IMG/VR virus record: IMGVR_UViG_2585427777_000008
Coordinates: 1-63,513 of that record
DNA length: 63,513 bases
Direction: 5' to 3' (one strand)
Origin: a virus
Taxonomy: Duplodnaviria; Heunggongvirae; Uroviricota; Caudoviricetes
The notes under the pieces are model-generated. The model was not told the DNA's origin. It made no database searches and worked only from the letters and a program-made list of their open reading frames with translations. The translations under genes were made by a program, and so were the position numbers. Below are positions 10,853 to 41,306 of the stretch, piece by piece (the first letter of the stretch is position 1; every line of letters starts with the position of its first letter).

Positions 10853-11620
10853 ATGGAAAGCACCAAAACAATTCAATACCGCTTGCGTAATGGCCTGCTG
10901 GTGGCTGTTAACGCCGACATGTCACTGCCGTTTGACACGATTGAACGCACTATCATGACGTATCTCGGCTTTAATGAAGAGCTGAATGAAGAGCATGGCG
11001 TAGCTATATGGAGTGATGCAGACAGCGGCGTTCGTCGTTACATCACCGCCAGGGGCAAAGACTACTCTCTGGAAGAACTGTTTACCCTTGCGCAGTCTTT
11101 CGAATGTGTAGCATTAGACCTGTTTAATGATCCTGCTATAGCGCAACGACTTATACGCGAGCTTGGGCTATCCGTTACACCAATTATCTTTAAAAATGGC
11201 AGCCTGACTGGCACATGGCGCGTAGAACGCATCTCAAACTACCTTCCATATAACCGACAGTTAAATGGAGTAATCTCCGGCGTTAATCAGCCCGTAGCGT
11301 GTGAAAATGTAAACCTAGTTGTCGCTGTTTTGGCAACCGCATGTCGTGTTATCGGTTTGGCTAAACAGGCATTTATTCATTTCCCAAATGGTGCAGAAGG
11401 TAGCGCAGAGATTATCGCGTGTGATTTCGAATTTACCTGGATGCTACGCGAATATCTGGACCAAACAGTATTCCGTGCCGAAGAACTGGATATGTATATC
11501 ACGTCAACGATTCCAGACGATGTGCGAGCTGAAGCAATCGCTACAGCCAGGGCGAAATGCCGTGCGGCAATTGCAGAACAGGCCAAAGAAAAAGTTAAGG
11601 AAGTGGCAGATGGCGACTAA
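10853..11620 (+). CDS. hypothetical protein
   Basis: 255-aa ORF; its stop overlaps the start of the PacB paralog. Confidence 0.5.
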   Translation: MESTKTIQYRLRNGLLVAVNADMSLPFDTIERTIMTYLGFNEELNEEHGVAIWSDADSGVRRYITARGKDYSLEELFTLAQSFECVALDLFNDPAIAQRLIRELGLSVTPIIFKNGSLTGTWRVERISNYLPYNRQLNGVISGVNQPVACENVNLVVAVLATACRVIGLAKQAFIHFPNGAEGSAEIIACDFEFTWMLREYLDQTVFRAEELDMYITSTIPDDVRAEAIATARAKCRAAIAEQAKEKVKEVADGD

Positions 11621-12704
11621 GAGCAATATTTATAAAGATCCGCGCTGGCTGTCGCTGGTGGAGAAATATAAAGACAATTGGGTACTGGCAGCAAAAGAAT
11701 TGTTTGATATTGATTTAAGCCACCAGCAACAACAAATTGTTGAAGCTATACAGCCCAATAATGCAAAAGCTACTGTCACCACTCCGTATGGGATCGGACG
11801 ACCGCAAGTGCTTGCTGTTATTAGTACCCTTTATACGATTATGTATCCTGATTCCCGGACAGTAATTGTTTATCCAAAATCAAATGTTTGCAAAAGAGGA
11901 ATTGTTGCATATGTGTGGCAATGTTGGGAGGCATTGCTGAAAAAACAACCTTTTATCATTGAGTATTTTAAGGTCGGTGATAGCGGTCTGATGTTCAATG
12001 AATTTTGGGGAATGTGCTTTTGTAACTACCGCCTTAACTATGAAGATAGCATTGCAGGTCACTACGCCGACCATCTTTTATTCATTATTGTGGATTCCGC
12101 ACATATCAGCGATCGGGCATACAGCATTGTGTGGGCAAGCATGACTAGTGGTGATTCACGCATATTGCTCACTTCAATTCCGTCACCAGAGGAAATAGGC
12201 TTTTTTTATGATTCACATCATGGACGTGCTTTAGCTGAAGATAATCCGAGTGGTGTATATAAAGCCATTAAGCTGAGTGCGGAGGATTCACCATTTATTA
12301 CCCAAGAATATCTTGATCATTTTGCCGAAAGGTATGGCGGGCGAAATAGTGATGACTATCGTCGTATGATTCTTGGTGAGTTCCCTGGTATTAGGGAGGC
12401 TGTTCTTGAATCAGATATGCCGAAGACAATGCGCTTTTCGATGCCTGATGGTAGTGAATGGACAATGCCATTACGAGTGATAGCCCGGCATCATGCGCAG
12501 CACCACGCCAAAAAACATGGCGTCACGACATTAGAATGGTTGAAATCGCACACTATTCCACTCTTCACTGCAGATCACAATGCTATCGTTGAGTGGGCAA
12601 AAACAATTCCGTGGGAGCATGTCGCTGAATATGCTCACATGCTAAAACCGCCGAAAGACAGGCACGAAATTAGCTGGCTGACAGCCGAAAAAATCATTGA
12701 ATGA
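11610..12704 (+). CDS. PacB-like paralog with degenerate ATPase motifs and no nuclease domain
   Basis: Start taken at the ATG at 11610 (MATKSNIYKDPRWL), not the overlapping upstream ATG. Aligns with the PacB N-terminal half (DPRW, SHQQQ, YFYDSHH) but Walker A is PYGIGRP and Walker B is LFIIVDSAH; the C-terminus is unrelated to the PacB nuclease region. Confidence 0.6.
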   Translation: MATKSNIYKDPRWLSLVEKYKDNWVLAAKELFDIDLSHQQQQIVEAIQPNNAKATVTTPYGIGRPQVLAVISTLYTIMYPDSRTVIVYPKSNVCKRGIVAYVWQCWEALLKKQPFIIEYFKVGDSGLMFNEFWGMCFCNYRLNYEDSIAGHYADHLLFIIVDSAHISDRAYSIVWASMTSGDSRILLTSIPSPEEIGFFYDSHHGRALAEDNPSGVYKAIKLSAEDSPFITQEYLDHFAERYGGRNSDDYRRMILGEFPGIREAVLESDMPKTMRFSMPDGSEWTMPLRVIARHHAQHHAKKHGVTTLEWLKSHTIPLFTADHNAIVEWAKTIPWEHVAEYAHMLKPPKDRHEISWLTAEKIIE

Positions 12705-12749
12705 TATCAACAAAAAGCCCGCCTGGTCTGGCGGGCTTCTTTATGCGCC

Positions 12750-13139
12750 TTAAATCACAGGTCTATAATCAAACTCCCCACTTCGGGCATCATTAATGAC
12801 ATGAGTGATCACACCAAAAACAGCATTACTGCCCGTGCATCCATCGTCATCTACTGGTAACGCCTCTTTCTTCCCGGTGCTTAAATCCTCCAGGTGCTGG
12901 CGCGGATATTTCCTGTATCTCTTTATGCGATATTCACCCTCCATAGCGCATATAAGCAGTGAACCATCAACCGGAGTAAGTGAGGAATCAACCACCAGCA
13001 AAGCACCTTGCAATATTCCCTCACGGTGATGGCTGTCTGCCGCCCGCATGAAGTAGGTCGCGGAAGGATGTCTGATTAGTTGCTGATCAAGAGAAATGCG
13101 GCTCTCTGCATAATCCGCCGCAGGAGAAGGGAAGCCCAT
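12750..13139 (-). CDS. humD: UmuD'-like SOS mutagenesis protein (HumD-like, S24 peptidase fold)
   Basis: 129 aa starting GFPSPAADY, colinear with the processed UmuD' form (HPSATYF...VFGVITHVI). Confidence 0.85.
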   Translation of the reverse strand: MGFPSPAADYAESRISLDQQLIRHPSATYFMRAADSHHREGILQGALLVVDSSLTPVDGSLLICAMEGEYRIKRYRKYPRQHLEDLSTGKKEALPVDDDGCTGSNAVFGVITHVINDARSGEFDYRPVI

Positions 13140-29731: not shown

Positions 29732-30091
29732 TCATACACCAACCAGGCTTTCAAGAGGAATGCCAAACTGGGAATGTAAACGACGAATCATAGGTAACGT
29801 TAAATTTCGTGTCCCATTTAGCACTTCGTAAACACGATTTGACTTACCAATCGCCGGTTCCAGATCCTTCACGGTCAGCCCTTGCTGTTCCATACGGAAT
29901 TTAATGGCTTCAATAGGTGATGGTGGCTCAATTGGGTAATGCTTTTTCTCGTACTCTTCAATGAGCAGGCACATTACTTCAAAGAAATCGCCTTCCGGTG
30001 TGTTCATTTCCGGTTCGTTATCGAACATCGGTTCGACCGCACGCAGTGCGGCCTCATAATCTTGTTCTGTACGGATAGGTTTAATGTTCAT
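29732..30091 (-). CDS. higA: HigA-like antitoxin (HTH)
   Basis: 119-aa ORF immediately downstream of the toxin, with a C-terminal HTH-like segment. Confidence 0.75.
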   Translation of the reverse strand: MNIKPIRTEQDYEAALRAVEPMFDNEPEMNTPEGDFFEVMCLLIEEYEKKHYPIEPPSPIEAIKFRMEQQGLTVKDLEPAIGKSNRVYEVLNGTRNLTLPMIRRLHSQFGIPLESLVGV

Positions 30092-30094
30092 GAT

Positions 30095-30397
30095 TTACTC
30101 CAGTTCTATTGTATCAGCTTCAATGGCATCGTATTCCTTATGTGTTCCAATAAACTTAACGAACATCCATCCTCGCTGATAAGCAATTGCGACAATTAAC
30201 CTGTAATCATTTCCCTTAATATTGAACACCACGCGCCTGTTTTTAAGGATGCTGGCTGTCCGGTACTGTTCTTTGATCTCAGCCGGATTTTTCCAGTCAG
30301 CCTTTGTTGCTTCATCAACCCATGCCTTTAATGGCTGTTCTGCATCGGGATTCTTCGCCCAGAAATCCCTTAGTGTTTTTACCGAAATTATTTTCAT
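30095..30397 (-). CDS. higB: HigB-like toxin (RelE/ParE superfamily)
   Basis: Start taken at MKIISVK with upstream AAGGA; C-terminal RVVFNIKGNDYRLIVAIAYQRGWMFVKFIGTHKEYD matches the HigB family pattern; toxin-first gene order typical of higBA. Confidence 0.8.
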   Translation of the reverse strand: MKIISVKTLRDFWAKNPDAEQPLKAWVDEATKADWKNPAEIKEQYRTASILKNRRVVFNIKGNDYRLIVAIAYQRGWMFVKFIGTHKEYDAIEADTIELE

Positions 30398-30426
30398 CAC
30401 AGATTCCTTCTCGCTGAAAGTATAGT

Positions 30427-30473
30427 AGTCCCAATATGGGACAATGTAAAGCACTTTAGTCCCATGCTGGGAT
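30427..30473. promoter_or_regulatory. two palindromic operator-like sites in the higBA promoter region
   Basis: AGTCCCAATATGGGAC and TCCCATGCTGGGA lie 30-75 bp upstream of the higB start. Confidence 0.5.
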
Positions 30474-34697: not shown

Positions 34698-35361
34698 TAA
34701 CCGACCGCTTGTTGTGAGTCTTTGTGATTTTACGGGGGCAATGGTTGCCCCCTGGCTGGAATACGGTGTCGATGCCGCTATCGTCGATCCACAGCACTTA
34801 TCGACCAGTGACGAGCGGATGCAATCAGGTGCCGTTCTGACGCGTATTAGTGCGATCATCGATAGCGATGAAGTATACGCTTTTCTCCGTAAGAATTTGC
34901 AGCGCATCGTGTTTCTGGCCGGGTTCCCACCGTGTACTGACCTGGCTGTTTCCGGCGCGCGCTGGTTTTCGGACAAGGCTAATAAAGATCCGGTTTTCCA
35001 GTTCAAAGCAATGCAGGTTGTCTGGCAGTGTTATGACATTGCAAAGATGATCGGTTGTCCGTACATGATTGAAAATCCGGTCAGCAAAATATCGACATTC
35101 TGGCGTAAGCCAGATCACATCTTTCACCCTTACTTCTTCACTGCATATTGTCAGGAAGATAACTACACCAAAAAAACATGCCTCTGGAGCGGCCAGGGCT
35201 TTGTCATGCCTGATGCCCTAATGGACGAATCATTAGGCAAGCCAGATAACAGAATCCATGCCGCGCCACCAGGGCCTGACAGGGCTAATTTCCGAAGTGC
35301 TACTCCACATGGATTCGCAAAGGCAGTTTTCGAAGCGAATAAGGGGGTGCTCTATGAGTAA
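34681..35361 (+). CDS. short C5-cytosine methyltransferase-like protein (atypical)
   Basis: Motif I-like [11 protein letters not shown], motif IV PPC ([12 protein letters not shown]) and ENV-like ENPVS, but only about 227 aa with no evident target-recognition domain. GTG start is uncertain. Confidence 0.45.
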
Positions 35362-36259
35362 ATCTATAGCAAGCATAGCCATAGAAAAACAGGATACGAT
35401 GGCTGAAATTAGCTATATGCGCACCATTCGGACTCCGGATGAATATGAGCGTCCGATATTCAAATGGGTAGGTGGTAAATTCTCAGAATTGCCTACAGTG
35501 CTTGAGCATCTACCACACGGTAAGCGGTTAATAGAACCATTCGTTGGTGGCGGTTCCGTATTTACGAATGCAGGATTTCGCCACAACCTGCTTAATGATA
35601 TTAACGGTGACCTGATTAACTTCTATCAGACATTGCAGCGAGAAGGACATTCGCTCGTCACGCTGTCATATAGTTTTTTCAAAAATTACAACAACGCTGA
35701 CGCTTACCTCGAAGTGCGTGAGGCATTTAACAGAGGAAAATATGACCAGCTACATCATGCTGCCGCATTTTTGTACCTTAATCGTCACTGTTTTAATGGC
35801 GTAACGCGGTACAACCAAAATGGCGAGTTCAACGTGGGGTATGGCAAATACAAAGCGCCCTACTTCCCACATGCAGAGATGGAGGCATTTTTGGCTGATG
35901 ACGTACTCAAAAACACTTCCTTTGTATCAGGAGACTTTGCTAGCGTCATCGAGGCGGCTGGTGAAGACGATGTGATTTTTTGTGATCCGCCGTATGAACC
36001 GCTTCCGGATACAGAGGGATTTACCAGCTATTCAGGAAATAGCTTCCGTTTCGATGAACAAAAACGGCTTGTATCACTGTTGGTGGATGCCCACCAGCGC
36101 GGCGCTAAGGTAGTGATAACAAATAGTGGTGCTCCAAACATCCGTGAGCTATATGAAGGAAACGGGTTTAAAGTACATCATATGGCAGCCAGACGGTCGG
36201 TTTCCTGCAAGGCGTCAACACGTGTAGTTGCTAACGATATAATTGCAATAATGAAGTAA
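35354..36259 (+). CDS. dam: DNA adenine methyltransferase (Dam-like)
   Basis: Start at MSKSIAS (RBS AAGGGGG). Motif I region KWVGGK...EPFVGGGSV and catalytic DPPY. Confidence 0.85.
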   Translation: MSKSIASIAIEKQDTMAEISYMRTIRTPDEYERPIFKWVGGKFSELPTVLEHLPHGKRLIEPFVGGGSVFTNAGFRHNLLNDINGDLINFYQTLQREGHSLVTLSYSFFKNYNNADAYLEVREAFNRGKYDQLHHAAAFLYLNRHCFNGVTRYNQNGEFNVGYGKYKAPYFPHAEMEAFLADDVLKNTSFVSGDFASVIEAAGEDDVIFCDPPYEPLPDTEGFTSYSGNSFRFDEQKRLVSLLVDAHQRGAKVVITNSGAPNIRELYEGNGFKVHHMAARRSVSCKASTRVVANDIIAIMK

Positions 36260-36307: not shown

Positions 36308-37969
36308 TTAACCTAACTTCGCCCAGGTATCACGCAGCCCAACGGTGCGGTTAAATACCGGTTTTTCCGCCGTAGAATGGCGGCTGTCGAGGCAGAAATA
36401 ACCTTCACGCTCAAACTGGAATGCTTTACCCGCTACCGCTTCTTTCAGCGACGGTTCAGCAAAGCCTTGTTTGATCACCAGCGATTCCGGGTTAATCACC
36501 GACAGGAAATCATCCGCAGCACCTGGGTTCGGCACGTTGAACAGACGATCGTACAGGCGGATTTCAACCGGCAGCGCATGTGCCGCGCTCACCCAGTGAA
36601 TAACGCCTTTCACTTTACGACCATCTGCCGGATCTTTGCTTAAGGTGTCGGCGTCATAAGTACAGAAGATGGTGGTGATATTACCTTCGGCATCTTTCTC
36701 CACGCGTTCAGCCTTAATGACGTAAGCATTACGCAGACGCACTTCTTTACCCAGCACCAGACGTTTGTACTGCTTGTTAGCTTCTTCTCGGAAATCGGCG
36801 CGGTCGATCCAAATCTCACCGCTAAACGGCACCTGACGGCTACCCATTTCCGGTTTGTTTGGATGGTTCGGCATGGTGACCATTTCGCCTTCGCCCTGGT
36901 AGTTTTCGATAACCAGTTTCACCGGATCGATAACCGCCATTGCGCGCGGGGCATTTTCGTTGAGATCTTCACGGATGCAGGATTCCAGCGACGCCATCTC
37001 AATGGTGTTGTCCTGCTTGGTCACGCCGATGCGTTTGCAGAACTCACGAATAGAAGCCGCAGTGTAACCACGACGACGCAGACCGGAAATGGTCGGCATA
37101 CGCGGGTCATCCCAGCCTTCAACGTGCTTGTCGGTCACCAGCAGGTTCAGCTTACGCTTGGACATCACAGTGTATTCCAGATTCAGGCGCGAGAATTCGT
37201 ACTGGCGCGGGTGAACAGGAATGGTGATGTTGTCCAGCACCCAGTCGTACAGGCGACGGTTGTCCTGGAACTCAAGCGTACACAGAGAGTGCGTAATACC
37301 TTCCAGCGCATCGCTGATGCAGTGGGTGAAGTCGTACATCGGGTAGATGCACCACTTGTTGCCAGTCTGGTGGTGTTCAGCAAACTTAATGCGGTACAGC
37401 ACCGGATCGCGCATCACGATAAACGGCGACGCCATGTCGATTTTCGCACGCAGGCAGGCTTTACCTTCTTCAAAACCACCGGCACGCATTTTTTCGAACA
37501 GCGCCAGGTTCTCTTCAACGCTGCGATCGCGGTACGGGCTGTTTTTACCCGGCTGCGTCAGGGTGCCGCGGTATTCGCGGATCTGTTCCGGCGTCAGTTC
37601 GTCAACATACGCCAGGCCTTTGTTGATCAGTTCAACAGCATAGGCGTGGAGCTGATCAAAATAATCGGAGGAGTAACGGATGTTGCCAGACCAGTGAAAA
37701 CCTAACCATTCAACGTCGTTTTTAATCGACTCGACGTACTCGATATCTTCTTTTACCGGGTTAGTGTCGTCGAAACGCAGGTTGCACTGGCCTTTATAGT
37801 CCTGGGCGATCCCGAAGTTCAGGCAGATAGATTTCGCATGACCAATATGCAGATAGCCATTTGGTTCCGGCGGGAAACGGGTATGTACTGTGGTGTGCTT
37901 ACCACTGGCCAGATCTTCATCGATGATCTGACGAATGAAGTTAGTCGGGCGGGCTTCTGCCTCACTCAT
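36308..37969 (-). CDS. glnS: glutaminyl-tRNA synthetase
   Basis: 553 aa, full length, with class I signatures HIGH ([12 protein letters not shown]) and VMSKR; colinear with enterobacterial GlnS throughout. Confidence 0.9.
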
Positions 37970-38237
37970 TGTGGATTCCTCAAAGCGTAAACAACGTATA
38001 ACAGCGTATGATCTTATAAGCCGAATAGGCTGACAACCACTAGTTGATTAGAAATTGCTTTCTATCGTTATTTCAATAATGAGCTTTTTCATGAAGCCCA
38101 CTTTTGCGCATAAGTAAATTAATGACAAATGGTACACAATTGATACCAAAAAGGATGTAAAAGTGCACCAAATTAGTGGTGTATTGGTGCACCTTTGGTT
38201 CAAAACTTTTTAAGTTCTAAAACCAACCTGAAAGACT

Positions 38238-38525
38238 TTATTTTGCTTCCTCAGACTCCGCTAACATGAGGATAGCATGGCGGATCATATTCAATTTGCT
38301 GCGATTATGCTTTTTGCTTAACGCATCAAGTACCTGGTACTCGTATTCATTGAAGCCAACACGAATGGATTTAAAATCACGTGGGGCGTCCTTATCGAGC
38401 ACTTTGTTGTCTTCTGGTTGCTCACCCGGCACCAAATCAGCTTTGCTGGCAAAAGCCTCAATTCGGCGTTCAAGATCGAGGTCTTTTACTTCGGGGGCTT
38501 TTACCGATTTACGAGGCTTAATCAC
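38238..38525 (-). CDS. parG: ParG-like centromere-binding protein
   Basis: 95-aa ORF directly downstream of, and overlapping, the ParA-type ATPase gene; basic N-terminus. Confidence 0.55.
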   Translation of the reverse strand: MIKPRKSVKAPEVKDLDLERRIEAFASKADLVPGEQPEDNKVLDKDAPRDFKSIRVGFNEYEYQVLDALSKKHNRSKLNMIRHAILMLAESEEAK

Positions 38526-39159
38526 TTAATAACTCCTTAACCAACATCTGGATTTCACCTTTAGCTTTCCCGTTGTCCATCTCAACAACGCCCTTCCCTT
38601 CAGCCATACAATCGCGGTAAACCTTGCGATCGCGAATGATGGTTTTCAGCAACTTCAGTTGCGGATATTCAGCCAGGTACTCTTTGGCCTCATTGGCTTC
38701 ATTCACAACCGGATTGGATGGGGCCATTGTTAAGACTGCGCACGCCTTAATGCTAGGATTAGGCATCAGATCCAAAGCCTCTTCAAAGACTTCAACAAAA
38801 TGCGCCAGAGTGTCTAAATCTGGCTGAGATGGCCTGAATGGAACAAGCAAAACATCCGCCGCAGTAATACCGGTGCGCATTTCTTTGCTATCACGACCAG
38901 CGGTATCAACAACCACAAATTCATAACGCTTGTCCAGATCAAGAAGTGTTTCACGAATATTCCCAAACTTCTGGACGCAATGAATTACTGGAGAAACCTC
39001 TGCCGCATTACGGTCCGATGCCCAACGGGCAGATGTTCCTTGCTTATCTGCATCAAGTAGAACTACGTCCTTATTTGCGCGGGCAAGCTCCGCACAAATA
39101 TTTACGCTGGTGGTTGATTTGCCACAGCCACCTTTTTGGCTGGCTACCAATATAATCAT
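38518..39159 (-). CDS. parF: ParF-like small ParA partition ATPase
   Basis: Start taken at MIILVASQKGG; deviant Walker A QKGGCGKST; about 213 aa. Confidence 0.8.
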   Translation of the reverse strand: MIILVASQKGGCGKSTTSVNICAELARANKDVVLLDADKQGTSARWASDRNAAEVSPVIHCVQKFGNIRETLLDLDKRYEFVVVDTAGRDSKEMRTGITAADVLLVPFRPSQPDLDTLAHFVEVFEEALDLMPNPSIKACAVLTMAPSNPVVNEANEAKEYLAEYPQLKLLKTIIRDRKVYRDCMAEGKGVVEMDNGKAKGEIQMLVKELLSD

Positions 39160-39194
39160 ATCCGTTCCTCGGTGTGATTTTGGTATCAAAACGG

Positions 39195-39380
39195 TTCCAG
39201 ATAAGAGCCTTTTTGATGCGGGACAGGCTCTATAATGGAGTCATGAATGTTTGGCAAAGTATAACATCAATCAGACCAAATACACCTAATATTGCATCCT
39301 ATTTAACACGAAATCAGCCCCAAATTGGAACCAGATACAAAATTGCACCATAACAGCACCTAACTGGTTCCAGATTAACA
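39195..39380. repeat. centromere-like repeats upstream of parF (GGTTCCAGAT / GGAACCAGAT family)
   Basis: At least three copies of TGG(TT/AA)CCAGAT(A/T)A plus CACCA(A/T)T motifs in the 290-bp parF upstream region. Confidence 0.4.
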
Positions 39381-39401
39381 CCAATTAGACACCATTAATG
39401 C

Positions 39402-39428
39402 ATAAAAAAGGCTGCAATTTGCAGCCTT
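39402..39428 (-). terminator. rho-independent terminator after parR (minus strand)
   Basis: AAGGCTGCA...TGCAGCCTT palindrome preceded on the + strand by an A-run, i.e. followed by a T-run on the minus strand. Confidence 0.5.
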
Positions 39429-39446
39429 AAACCAGCACATCTTCTG

Positions 39447-39791
39447 TCAATCAGGTAGAGAGTCAGCCAGATTGCGCGCCGACGCGCTTTTGGCAACAAC
39501 TTGCTCCTTCACTGGCTCAATGGAGGCAGGGCGCTCCTCAACCGCAGCTGGTAGTTCCAGGAAGGATGCCAGCATTTTTCGGATCAGCTCCGGGTTATTG
39601 TCTTCGGTCAGCAGGGAAGCCAGTAATCCTGGAAGCCTGCTATCGACTTCTCCCAGCGCAAGCCCTGCCAACAATGCGGTTCTTGCCATATCGCTATGTT
39701 TTTTTATCTTCTCGCTAGCCGCCTTTTCATTGGCATAAGCCTCTGGGCGAAGATAAATCATCACTTTCTTACGTTCCTGAGACATGGACAT
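39447..39791 (-). CDS. parR: ParR-like adaptor
   Basis: 114-aa ORF immediately downstream of parM; segment ARTALLAGLALGEVDSRLPGLL parallels ParR/StbB proteins. Confidence 0.55.
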   Translation of the reverse strand: MSMSQERKKVMIYLRPEAYANEKAASEKIKKHSDMARTALLAGLALGEVDSRLPGLLASLLTEDNNPELIRKMLASFLELPAAVEERPASIEPVKEQVVAKSASARNLADSLPD

Positions 39792-39798
39792 TACCTCG

Positions 39799-40779
39799 TT
39801 AACCGATTGCTTTCAGGCCATGAACAAGAGCAAGTTGCGGGTCATCCGCCACGAAGAAACGGTCATCACGAATATTAACTTGCTCGCGAATTGCATCTGC
39901 CACCAGCGGTGCGCCACCACCGATCACCATGACATGCGTATATCCTTTAAAGTCGCCAATCACATCAAGAACGCGGGTACGCAGACGGTCAATGCTTGCG
40001 GCAATGGCCTTTTTCACATCACCAACCGCTGATGGGTCATTGATATTGTCGTTCAGATAATCTTCATCGTGGCGGTTAATAATGAGCTGATCGACATTGT
40101 AATTTGACGTTTCGGTATTGGCTCTGGCAAGTGCTTGCCTTACTTCCCTGGTGACCAGTGATACACCAAGATTCGAATCGCCAAAAACACGGGAAACTGC
40201 CGTCATTTGCCCGGCGACCATTGAAACATCAAGGGTAGTTCCACCCAAATCGACGATAAGAACAGAATGGGCAGGGTTCAGATTGTCGCACAGGCCAATT
40301 CCTGCCGGAATAGACTCCGGGCGTACCGTAACTTTCTTAATCGTGAACACATTGCCTTTATTCAGCGTGACGGGGCGCATAAGGCTGGCTTTCTTGCGCT
40401 CGATGTTATCGAGATTGTATTGCGCGTCGACGTCGTAAAACTCCGCCAGAGGCAGCGTGACCACAATTTCTACTTCCTGCGGCTCAATGCCACTTGTCAG
40501 CAGGGCATGGTGAACAGCCAGGACGTTAAGCGGGCTGTATTGCCATTCCACGTTATTCGTCGGCAGAACATCTGGCGAGATCAAATCATACGAATACTTT
40601 TCGTCGTCAATGACATAGTTAAACGGCTTGCCAGCACCAAATGTTGCTGACCATCCGCGCTTAAAGCTGTTAGGGCTGATGTGAGTGCGAGTTTCCCCGT
40701 CGTGCTCCCACAGCATTTTGATATTGGTTGAACCATCATCGATAAAAATGCGCATCTTCTTGCTCCACTTCTGAGACAC
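39799..40779 (-). CDS. parM: ParM-like actin-type segregation ATPase
   Basis: 326 aa; actin-fold phosphate motifs FIDDGSTNIK and LIVDLGGTTLD, colinear with ParM/StbA. Confidence 0.85.
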   Translation of the reverse strand: MSQKWSKKMRIFIDDGSTNIKMLWEHDGETRTHISPNSFKRGWSATFGAGKPFNYVIDDEKYSYDLISPDVLPTNNVEWQYSPLNVLAVHHALLTSGIEPQEVEIVVTLPLAEFYDVDAQYNLDNIERKKASLMRPVTLNKGNVFTIKKVTVRPESIPAGIGLCDNLNPAHSVLIVDLGGTTLDVSMVAGQMTAVSRVFGDSNLGVSLVTREVRQALARANTETSNYNVDQLIINRHDEDYLNDNINDPSAVGDVKKAIAASIDRLRTRVLDVIGDFKGYTHVMVIGGGAPLVADAIREQVNIRDDRFFVADDPQLALVHGLKAIG

Positions 40780-40780
40780 A

Positions 40781-40936
40781 TTTGAGAATCAAAATGTAAT
40801 TTTAAAAGAGAAGCACCCAAAAATCCACACCAAACGAGATAAAGAAGAGCGATTGTTGAGTTTATTTTGAGAATATCTTAATCACCCACCGAATGATGGT
40901 CTGATAGTGAGATTTATTTGAGAACGAATTGAGAAT
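40781..40936. repeat. parC-like centromere repeats (TTGAGAA(T/C) iterated)
   Basis: At least four copies of TTTGAGAAT/TTGAGAAC in the AT-rich region upstream of parM. Confidence 0.45.
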
Positions 40937-41021
40937 ACAAAAATATTCCGAAATTTAACTCTCCGTTTGAATGACGAAATAACAAAGTGATGACAATAGG
41001 AGGATAACCAGGAGGTGAAGA

Positions 41022-41306
41022 ATGAGCGCAATAGCCACCAGCGACACCCTTTGTTCTGGTCACGGAGGATTTCCGCCGCGACTGGTAGCTGAAACCGTTC
41101 CCTGGTTCACCGTTAACGGTAAGCCAGTTGTTGTAGATGGTGCCATGTTTCCCAGTCACACTGACGGTAACAGTGCACATCCAGGGGCAGCTGTATCGAC
41201 GCGAGTATGGTTTTCGATAGGTGGAAAGGGAGTTGTCTGTGTAGGCGATCCGCTTTCTTGTGGTTCTGTTATCGCCAACGGCGAGGATATTTTTCAGGTT
41301 GCATAA
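41022..41306 (+). CDS. PAAR-like spike-tip protein
   Basis: 94 aa, Gly-rich, with repeated G.P.V.G/VGD...C..GS..V segments typical of PAAR cone proteins. The overlapping minus-strand ORF 40914..41318 is rejected. Confidence 0.55.
   Translation: MSAIATSDTLCSGHGGFPPRLVAETVPWFTVNGKPVVVDGAMFPSHTDGNSAHPGAAVSTRVWFSIGGKGVVCVGDPLSCGSVIANGEDIFQVA

Follow-up and report, generated by a model that had tools for sequence, protein, structure and literature searches.

Organization of the two cassettes

The window, by which we mean the whole 63.5-kb stretch of DNA analyzed here, was found to be ~96% identical to phage D6, and the element is a D6-like phage-plasmid. On the minus strand, four intact genes lie in the order parM, parR, parA and the gene for a 95-aa protein, with a terminator between parR and parA. 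As judged from sequence, these genes make up two complete plasmid-partition cassettes in a row, an actin-type ParM/ParR cassette and a small ParA ATPase with its 95-aa partner, which are accompanied by three repeat arrays that exceed chance and each have an 11-bp period. The features are as follows.

40769..40940, minus strand: array a, a parC-like candidate centromere/operator with ~10 iterons of 11 bp, core (T)TCTCA
40799..40827, minus strand: putative parMR promoter (-35 TGGATT at 40827-40822, 17-nt spacer, -10 TAAAAT at 40804-40799)
39799..40755, minus strand: parM, actin-like segregation ATPase, 318 aa (ATG at 40755, preceded by GGAG)
39447..39785, minus strand: parR, predicted centromere-binding adaptor, 112 aa (or 114 aa with a start at 39791)
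39404..39428, minus strand: intrinsic terminator closing the parMR operon (AAGGCTGCAAATTGCAGCCTT followed by TTTT; 9-pair stem with 5 GC pairs)
39270..39398, minus strand: array b, upstream of parA, ~11 direct boxes WGGTGYN with an AT-rich spacer
39258..39266, minus strand: putative parA promoter, extended -10 TGTTATACT, read by eye
38518..39159, minus strand: parA, type Ib deviant-Walker-A ATPase, 213 aa (ATG at 39159, preceded by GAGGAA)
38238..38525, minus strand: gene for the 95-aa candidate centromere-binding protein (D6 orf61; GTG start, preceded by AAGGAG)
38130..38200, minus strand: array c, past the 3' end of the 95-aa gene, with ~7-8 copies of the box motif in mixed orientations and an 11-bp period

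A sequence-only reading of this DNA had proposed two different partition cassettes, Walker-type (type Ib) and actin-type (type II), adjoining on one strand, and the homologies given below bear this out. It had also placed a terminator and a repeat array between the cassettes, and both were located there, the terminator as a hairpin with a T-run at 39428-39404. The idea that each module has its own repeat array was partly right: the arrays exist, but the type Ib cassette has two flanking ones, which brings the total to three. Position 38130, where that reading had begun the region, falls in array c. The higBA-like pair that it had counted as a further stability system is present in the window at 29732-30454. 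In D6-like elements, the two small cassettes sit between upfC and glnS/dmt. We found no Rfam family in the region and no GC or compositional anomaly across it that would signal recent acquisition, and the D6 record contained no other partition candidate.

The ParM sequence matched the Pfam families StbA_N (3e-69) and ParM_N (7e-55) and the PDB structures of R1 ParM (4a62/1mwk; E ~1e-111) over its full length, with residues 1-318 aligned against residues 1-319. The nucleotide-binding motifs DDGSTNIK, DLGGTTLD and GGGA were intact. ParM was 53.6% identical to a widespread class of plasmid proteins annotated ParM, IncF-type plasmids included, and 43% identical to the pB171-type ParM. The parM open frame reaches further upstream, to a GTG at 40779. 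Directly downstream, across an intergenic gap of 13 nt, lies parR, the product of which matched Pfam Plasmid_stab_B (3.5e-11) and the pB171 ParR/StbB structure (PDB 2jd3; E 1e-6) and was 32% identical to the ParR of L010, an IncF locus of the pB171 type. The C-terminal sequence ...NLA(D/N)SLPD was common to both ParR alleles.

We infer the parMR promoter by eye because the consensus scanner gave no match to it; the elements TTTTAAAAT and GTRTGGAT were kept across alleles. The iterons of array a are arranged in blocks of three (40939-40907) and four (40876-40833), one between the -35 and -10 elements, and two (40790-40769), the last block covering the parM 5' UTR. TTCTCA occurs in 30 copies on both strands of the window, four of which fall within 150 nt upstream of parM. 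The 11-bp period of array a (self-match at lag 11 versus shuffles) gave z values of 3.9-4.7 for the stretch 40769..40940, within an overall range of 3.9-6.0 for the iterons, and the iteron positions were kept in the diverged alleles L014 and L015. In L016 and L017, which carry ParR allele 2, the iteron core was GTCTC, not TTCTCA. With a ParM, a downstream ParR and phased iterons overlapping the promoter, the predicted cassette is a type II ParMRC system.

The type Ib cassette and its 95-aa protein

The ParA sequence contains the Walker motif KGGCGKS at residues 9-15 and aligned over residues 4-211 with TP228 ParF (PDB 4dzz; E 3e-18). Both modules were checked for disruption, and neither is broken, as ParM also aligned end to end with R1 ParM. 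Against the NCBIfam model ParA_partition, ParA scored 157.8 bits with profile positions 1-203 of 203 covered; the score lies below the cut-off of 180, and ParA is therefore a family relative rather than a curated equivalog. It was 45% identical to the IncI-type ParA and 42.6% identical to the pB171-type ParA. The protein is without an N-terminal HTH domain, and its size fits the ~200-220 aa of a type Ib ATPase. The putative parA promoter was not returned by the consensus promoter scan; its (T/C)TATACT was kept in all eight of the eight alleles despite divergent flanks.

Two arrays of the same motif flank this operon. Array b is the densest 150-nt WGGTGY window in the 63.5 kb, and array c is the second densest. 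Enrichment of the repeat motifs was confined precisely to the three intergenic arrays. Five boxes of array b stand in perfect 11-bp register (39394, 39383, 39372, 39361 and 39350), followed by a 6-nt phase shift and more boxes, the final ones overlapping the -35 position of the parA promoter. The boxes of array c read GGTGCACC, ACACCA, TGGTGCA, TGGTATC and GTACCA. Self-match at lag 11 against shuffles gave z = 3.9-4.0 for array b and z = 4.3 for array c. In other alleles, the counterpart of array c follows the stop codon and precedes a terminator, and distant stand-alone homologues carry GGTAC, GGCAC or ACACCA boxes on either side of the operon. Dual arrays are a documented type Ib layout in pB171, pSM19035 and pESBL (PMC7602700). 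Array b was also considered as a second ParR site and rejected, because it contains no TTCTCA and its variation follows the parA allele instead of the ParR allele.

The first 8 nt of the 95-aa gene overlap the end of parA, to which the gene is translationally coupled. Searches with the single 95-aa sequence gave no match in Pfam (E <= 0.01), NCBIfam or the PDB (E <= 10), and in a word-indexed protein search, the matches were limited to close relatives of the D6-like type. For nine members of the 95-aa family, no ParG-named Pfam family was matched at E <= 1, and a 62-sequence profile of the family did not retrieve ParG from the PDB. No similarity was detected to the pB171-type ParB or to the IncI-type partner. 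The sequence-only reading had labeled the pair ParFG, type Ib. The first half of this label holds, with a type Ib ParA related to TP228 ParF; the ParG half does not, since the 95-aa protein matched nothing in Pfam, NCBIfam or the PDB and so falls outside the ParG family as judged by sequence.

The top PDB matches of the 62-sequence profile were chains of the RHH proteins CopG, HP0222 and PutA, all of them weak (E 0.14-1), and Pfam RHH_1 and RHH_7 matched a minority of the homologues. The AF2 monomer model, built from a shallow alignment of eight sequences, had a pLDDT of 57 and showed helices at 60-73 and 77-93, with an unstructured KSIRVGF segment ahead of them. A Foldseek search of the PDB with this low-confidence model gave RHH proteins as the top matches, none of them significant (E > 3). 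These lines of evidence appear to converge, if weakly, and the 95-aa protein is probably a ribbon-helix-helix centromere binder with the predicted RHH at its C-terminal end. The family comprises ~100 clusters at 50% identity, and R5 was at least 90% conserved in 62 members. Its homologues were always downstream of a small parA, on ordinary plasmids of Serratia, Arsenophonus, Aeromonas and Moraxella, and the Arsenophonus pair adjoins rep.

The weak resemblance to CopG-type repressors, together with the fact that the protein matches no partition family, could also indicate that the parA/95-aa pair does not serve partition, but consists of a CopG-like transcriptional or copy-number regulator and a ParA-like ATPase with another cargo or role; a paper on a Salmonella D6-like element groups 'cop, parA, stbB and parM' into a single partition system (PMC6799933). 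We consider this reading very improbable. Unrelated plasmids carry the two genes together next to their replication genes, the phased arrays flanking the operon fit a type Ib centromere layout and not a single operator, and ParA is closest to ParF and plasmid partition ParAs. Moreover, with the D6 rep gene ~11 kb away, copy control is an unlikely function for this site.

Allele reassortment and the proposed mechanism

Eight alleles from related plasmids were compared, and the 11-bp period gave z = 3.1-6.0 in every scored array (23 of 24); one array upstream of parA was left unscored, as the pattern used to find the -10 element had matched prematurely. The iteron core switched together with the ParR allele, whereas divergence in arrays b and c tracked the parA/95-aa allele rather than the ParR allele. 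Each cassette reassorts independently of the other. The terminator hairpin was near-identical in 8/8 alleles, with one loop-base difference in three of them, and the sequence on its parA side diverged. In these alignments, the terminator appears as the boundary between the two reassorting modules.

This comparison also bears on whether the cassettes are functionally coupled in the manner of the pB171 double par, through a shared centromere, regulatory cross-talk or terminator read-through, which we regard as quite unlikely. Cross-talk is documented for pB171 (Ringgaard et al. 2007), and TTTGGTGTGGATTTTTGGGTGC in the parM promoter has two box-like motifs 11 bp apart. These boxes are not kept in L014 and L015, however, where the position reads ATTGTATGGATATTCAAAGGC. 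The TTCTCA iteron is missing from array b, and the cassettes are tandem rather than divergent, have a strong conserved terminator between them and reassort independently. An example of such coupling would be the 95-aa protein acting on TGGTG-like sequences in the parM promoter (40813-40835); this candidate was rejected because the motifs are not conserved in the same two alleles.

The partition region was matched by 132 PLSDB plasmids. The tandem is retained in ~125 D6-like plasmids, the hosts of which are E. coli, Salmonella, Shigella, E. marmotae and E. fergusonii. The four genes were annotated as intact in nearly all of them. In pCUVET20, a 1-nt deletion frameshifts parM in an otherwise identical sequence, and the type II function may therefore not always be needed. 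Such a case would fit a locus in which one cassette alone partitions, the other being a passenger that is redundant or in decay, or one that serves only in certain hosts or conditions; SCP1 likewise has two par systems, of which one matters under laboratory conditions (PMC13245405). We consider this unlikely. The lone frameshift could reflect an assembly error, and nearly all of the ~125 plasmids have the four genes annotated as intact. In addition, both cassettes have preserved their proteins and arrays despite considerable divergence and the replacement of alleles, an argument that each is under selection.

The origin of the tandem had been attributed to module capture from another plasmid. 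Capture as such is plausible, since the nearest non-D6 relatives of each cassette occur alone on ordinary plasmids; it is not recent, because the tandem is fixed across the ~125 D6-like plasmids and shows no GC anomaly. The combination of a type Ib with a type II system on pB171 was reportedly described in 2001. Carrying both types had been called unusual as well, a view that is not supported in light of the 971 PLSDB plasmid accessions with a type I RHH-ParB plus type II combination (PMC13245405), the pB171 precedent and the IncF pB171-type locus L010. Pairings of this sort are common and have been described before, and the tandem cassettes reveal no new mechanism.

Taken together, we consider it likely that two independent, complete partition cassettes, as predicted from their sequences, ensure that both daughter cells inherit the low-copy D6-like plasmid prophage. 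We infer the DNA binding, autoregulation, ATPase stimulation and activity of both. In the type II cassette, ParR would bind the ~ten 11-bp TTCTCA iterons flanking the parMR promoter, which would both build the centromere complex and repress the parMR operon, and the conserved C-terminal tail of ParR would capture ParM-ATP filaments that push sister plasmids apart. The type Ib cassette would run from its own promoter, downstream of the strong terminator. Its 95-aa protein, most likely an RHH dimer, would bind the WGGTGY-type boxes one helical turn apart, with array b, which overlaps the parA promoter, serving as centromere and auto-operator and the second array lying just past the 95-aa stop codon. 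The N-terminal tail of the protein, in which R5 is near-invariant, may stimulate the ATPase of nucleoid-bound ParA and so space the plasmids over the nucleoid.

A further proposal, which we put forward only tentatively and as one joint idea, is that the cassettes act as a combinatorial partition-specificity code, in which ParR/iteron and 95-aa/box alleles reassort at the terminator hairpin, and that the 95-aa protein would define an uncharacterized family of centromere binders reading GGTRCC-like boxes at one-helical-turn spacing. If this is true, having two systems of different mechanism could keep the prophage stably inherited when a co-resident plasmid or related phage-plasmid shares one of its centromere specificities. 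The reassortment of alleles is a hint that D6-like prophages fall into partition-based incompatibility groups, and such groups bear on which phage-plasmids, some with resistance genes, can coexist in a cell. The analysis provides a concrete map of the inheritance of D6-like phage-plasmids, which occur frequently in E. coli, Salmonella and Shigella; it gives a candidate role to D6 orf61, which is annotated as hypothetical, and coordinates for three candidate centromere/operator arrays.

Comparison with known partition systems

The double par locus of pB171 (par1, parMR, type II; par2, parAB, type Ib; parC1/parC2) also places an actin-type system adjacent to a small Walker-type system, and its ParR is of the same family as the D6-like ParR (PDB 2jd3). 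In contrast to the tandem D6-like cassettes with a terminator between them, the operons of pB171 are divergent around a shared parC1, and L010 shows the divergent layout. The identities to the pB171-type proteins are low (ParM 43%, ParR 32%, ParA ~43%), and the small DNA-binding proteins have no detectable similarity. The L010 repeats have a ~7-bp period and a different motif, whereas the D6-like repeats have an 11-bp period and WGGTGY boxes. Across the arrays and promoters of the alleles, we found no conserved evidence of pB171-like cross-regulation or of a shared operator.

R1 ParMRC likewise has ~ten 11-bp iterons on both sides of the promoter, as found upstream of parM in the D6-like locus. 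In R1 parC, two sets of five 11-bp iterons flank the promoter. The blocks are thus arranged as 5 + 5 in R1 and as 3 + 4 + 1 + 2 in the D6-like locus; the iteron and ParR sequences also differ from those of R1, and the host element here is a P1-like phage-plasmid.

In TP228 ParF/ParG and IncI pESBL ParAB, a small ParA (~210 aa) is likewise followed by a coupled DNA-binding protein of ~76-100 aa. Phased short repeats serve there as centromere and operator, as proposed here, and pESBL also has dual arrays. The TP228 parH site consists of ACTC tetramers with 4-bp spacers, which would differ from the D6-like boxes. The pESBL units are 8 bp long (PMC7602700), and the D6-like box motif and 11-bp spacing differ from them.

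P1 ParABS (type Ia) performs the same task with a Walker-type ATPase, partitioning a P1-family plasmid prophage. That neither D6-like system is of the P1 type, as the sequence-only reading had stated, agrees with our results. P1 ParA has 398 aa and a regulatory N-terminal domain, whereas the D6-like ParA has 213 aa. P1 ParB is a 333-aa HTH protein acting with a parS that has an IHF site; Pfam and NCBIfam searches found no ParB/Spo0J-type (HTH-ParB) protein in the region, and the P1-type genes are absent from the D6 record. P1 is without par-like genes at this site and keeps repA-parA-parB-parS at another locus, between upfA and gene 23, with the partition genes beside repA. The comparison shows that the D6-like elements have had the P1-family partition functions replaced wholesale, not modified.

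Identity and layout of the two partition cassettes

The 3-kb par region of the window shared 96.4% identity with Escherichia phage D6 (MF356679, 56865-59924) and up to 99.8% with ~90 kb non-mobilizable plasmids of E. coli, Salmonella and Shigella. It matched 132 PLSDB records, 113 of which covered at least 80% of the query. On these sequence matches to D6 and the plasmids, the window is assigned to a D6-like, P1-family phage-plasmid. The tandem, same-strand layout described in the sequence-only reading was confirmed, as parM, parR, parA and a gene for a 95-aa protein were all found on the minus strand, with a terminator between the cassettes.

Features of the par region and its flanks
41022-41306, +: PAAR-motif gene (P1 upfC homologue, 56% identical to P1 UpfC), upstream of and divergent from parM
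Upstream of parM: array a, ~10 iterons (core (T)TCTCA) grouped 3, 4, 1 and 2 around the putative promoter
40827-40799, -: putative parM promoter (TGGATT, 17 nt, TAAAAT)
40755..39799, -: parM, ATG after GGAG; the open frame reaches up to a GTG at 40779
39785..39447, -: parR
39428-39404, -: hairpin terminator (9-bp stem and T-run) between parR and parA
Terminator to parA: array b, ~11 direct WGGTGYN boxes, an AT-rich spacer after each
39159..38518, -: parA
38525..38238, -: 95-aa gene (D6 orf61), GTG start overlapping the parA stop by 8 nt
38130-38200: array c, 7-8 WGGTGYN-motif boxes in mixed orientation, just downstream of the 95-aa gene
36308-37969, -: glnS, full-length glutaminyl-tRNA synthetase (TIGR00440, 1067 bits), directly downstream of the type Ib cassette

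ParM contained two Pfam ParM domains (3e-69 and 7e-55), matched the R1 ParM structures (E about 1e-111) and was 53.6% identical to a widespread plasmid parM class annotated ParM. ParR had matches in Pfam (Plasmid_stab_B, 3.5e-11) and in PDB (2jd3, the pB171 ParR structure, E 1e-6). Identities to the ParM and ParR of a pB171-type IncF locus (L010) were 43% and 32%, respectively. ParA is a 213-aa deviant-Walker-A ATPase with the motif KGGCGKS, related to TP228 ParF (E 3e-18), 45% identical to IncI-type ParA and about 43% identical to pB171-type ParA; it spanned the entire NCBIfam ParA_partition model, but its score of 157.8 was below the cut-off of 180. Both modules were intact, with ParM residues 1-318 aligning with R1 ParM and ParA residues 4-211 with TP228 ParF. 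In the D6 GenBank record, orf58 is annotated as a StbA-type and orf59 as a StbB-type stability protein, orf60 as "possible ParA" and orf61 as hypothetical.

Relatives differed at several positions. The glnS gene was present in D6 and the D6-like plasmids L014 and L018 and absent from L002 (pCUVET20), L017 and apparently also L015 and L016, where a terminator directly followed array c; D6-like phage-plasmids thus carry glnS as variable cargo. The stretch upstream of parM measured 536 nt in L016 and L017; no PAAR gene was listed there, although the DNA resembled the reverse complement of one. A single-base deletion (CATTGAC to CATGAC) at ~1925 of L002 (pCUVET20-PYO4.3; window ~40610) broke the parM frame, the surrounding 240 nt being otherwise identical; the assembly may be in error here, or one lineage may truly have lost its type II motor. 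A HigB-like toxin and an HTH antitoxin, each of 119 aa, were encoded as a pair at window 29732-30454 (-). D6 differed at the syntenic position (67.5-69.4 kb), where a RelE-family toxin gene lay with two HigA-type genes and one additional ORF; relatives thus differ in the addiction module carried there. Window 11593-12758, syntenic with D6 phd-doc, contained no phd-doc-sized pair and instead a 461-aa ORF (11319-12704, +); by BLASTN, D6 similarity picked up again only at either side.

Repeat arrays and reassortment of the cassettes

Both cassettes carried repeat arrays of their own, as had been proposed, but three rather than two were found because the type Ib cassette has two. Each had an 11-bp period (lag-11 self-match, z = 3.9, 3.9 and 4.3). 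Four of the 30 TTCTCA copies in the window were inside array a, and arrays b and c were the top two windows for WGGTGY density across 63.5 kb. The first five boxes of array b (39394 to 39350) kept an exact 11-bp register, and its final boxes overlapped the -35 position of a conserved extended -10, TGTTATACT (39266-39258). Three copies of ATCTGGAACC were seen: array b held two, ATCTGGAACC and ATCTGGTTCC, and the third followed a hairpin, AGAGCC(N16)GGCTCT, in the parA 5' UTR at 39193-39231 (-). This hairpin-repeat element occurred only in the window/D6-type allele, with ordinary boxes there in other alleles. The mapping of the three arrays to coordinates appears new.

The comparison covered eight alleles: the window's own, those of D6 and pCUVET20, and those carried by plasmids of E. 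fergusonii, S. dysenteriae, E. marmotae and two E. coli strains. The 11-bp period was found in every array scored (23 of 24, z = 3.1-6.0), despite intergenic divergence beyond megablast alignment; the remaining array was one upstream of parA, where the pattern used to locate the -10 gave a premature match. ParR allele 2 (121 aa; L016 and L017) was accompanied by GTCTC-core iterons (5-6 copies versus 1), which at the sequence level is co-variation of protein and putative site, and arrays b and c followed the parA/95-aa allele rather than the ParR allele. The terminator hairpin, near-identical in all eight alleles (one loop base differed in three), marks the border between the two modules. Four small-protein alleles were paired with ParR allele 1, the window's type, and the window's type Ib allele was also found with ParR allele 2; the cassettes have therefore reassorted independently. 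This evidence for independently reassorting specificity alleles appears new.

Relatives of each cassette also stood alone. Ordinary plasmids from Serratia, Aeromonas, Moraxella, Acinetobacter and Arsenophonus carried the parA/small-gene pair by itself, next to a rep gene in Arsenophonus, and GGTAC/GGCAC/ACACCA boxes lay on both operon sides in the Serratia, Arsenophonus and Aeromonas homologues. The nearest non-D6 ParM (69.6% identity), from a Proteus conjugative plasmid, was accompanied by ParR and no type Ib cassette. Each cassette thus also exists as a module on its own, and the two were brought together in the D6 lineage, across which they are fixed. No GC anomaly was found at the cassettes.

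The 95-aa protein and a proposed mechanism

The label "ParFG" fitted poorly because single-sequence searches of Pfam, NCBIfam and PDB gave no match for the 95-aa protein. An exhaustive HMMER search revealed a small family of ~100 clusters of 75-100-aa proteins, some of which matched Pfam RHH_1 or RHH_7. The top PDB matches of a 62-sequence family profile were RHH proteins (CopG, a CopG-family regulator, HP0222 and the PutA DNA-binding domain), with E values of only 0.14-1 and alignments spanning strand, helix and helix. A low-confidence AF2 monomer (pLDDT 57) placed two C-terminal helices after KSIRVGF, a segment that could form a strand only in a dimer; with this model, Foldseek ranked RHH proteins first, although the matches were not significant. 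The protein is probably an RHH centromere binder outside the ParG family by sequence. ParG and other ParA partners have a flexible N-terminal tail with a basic residue that stimulates the ATPase, and R5, whose conservation in the family is at least 90%, would fit this role by analogy. The assignment of orf61 as a candidate type Ib adaptor appears new.

Two independent partition machines are the best-supported reading. The ParMRC pusher would be autoregulated through ParR binding to the iterons flanking its promoter. In the type Ib ParA system, the adaptor would coat the two box arrays flanking the operon and stimulate the ATPase, with array b serving also as a repressing operator; both cassettes are predicted to be active. 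Dual arrays have been documented in pB171, pSM19035 and pESBL (PMC7602700). Cross-talk in the pB171 style found no conserved support: box-like motifs of the parM promoter were missing in two alleles, and the ParR iteron motif was absent from array b.

Comparison with P1 and with known double par loci

In P1, dmt-hrdC-uhr is divergent from upfC-upfB, and the oriR-repA-parA-parB-parS block is located beyond these genes, ahead of gene 23. This rep/par block is absent from D6-like elements, consistent with the earlier statement that neither system resembles P1 ParAB. Their rep gene is Rep_3-type and ~11 kb from the par cassettes, which together with glnS lie between upfC and dmt. The suggested D6/P1 comparison yielded no ancestral module, as neither is shared with P1; both cassettes are non-orthologous replacements at a site other than P1 par. 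The D12-class adenine methyltransferase at window 35258-36259 (+) matched only part of the bifunctional P1 Dmt, and the D6 hrdC-dcm-dmt block was inverted compared with the P1 dmt-hrdC-uhr operon.

The observation of two par systems is confirmed, and the interpretation given with it is partly supported. The pB171 double par locus has reportedly been known since 2001, and the IncF example retrieved here (L010) had a divergent layout. The pairing was not unusual: in a 2026 survey, 971 PLSDB accessions combined a type I RHH-ParB system with a type II system, and 19% of the plasmids with any par system had more than one (PMC13245405). In PLoS One, D6-like plasmids from Salmonella had already been described with "cop, parA, stbB and parM" as their partition genes (PMC6799933). 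In contrast to the divergent pB171-type locus, the D6-like cassettes are tandem and terminator-separated, an organisation that appears new.
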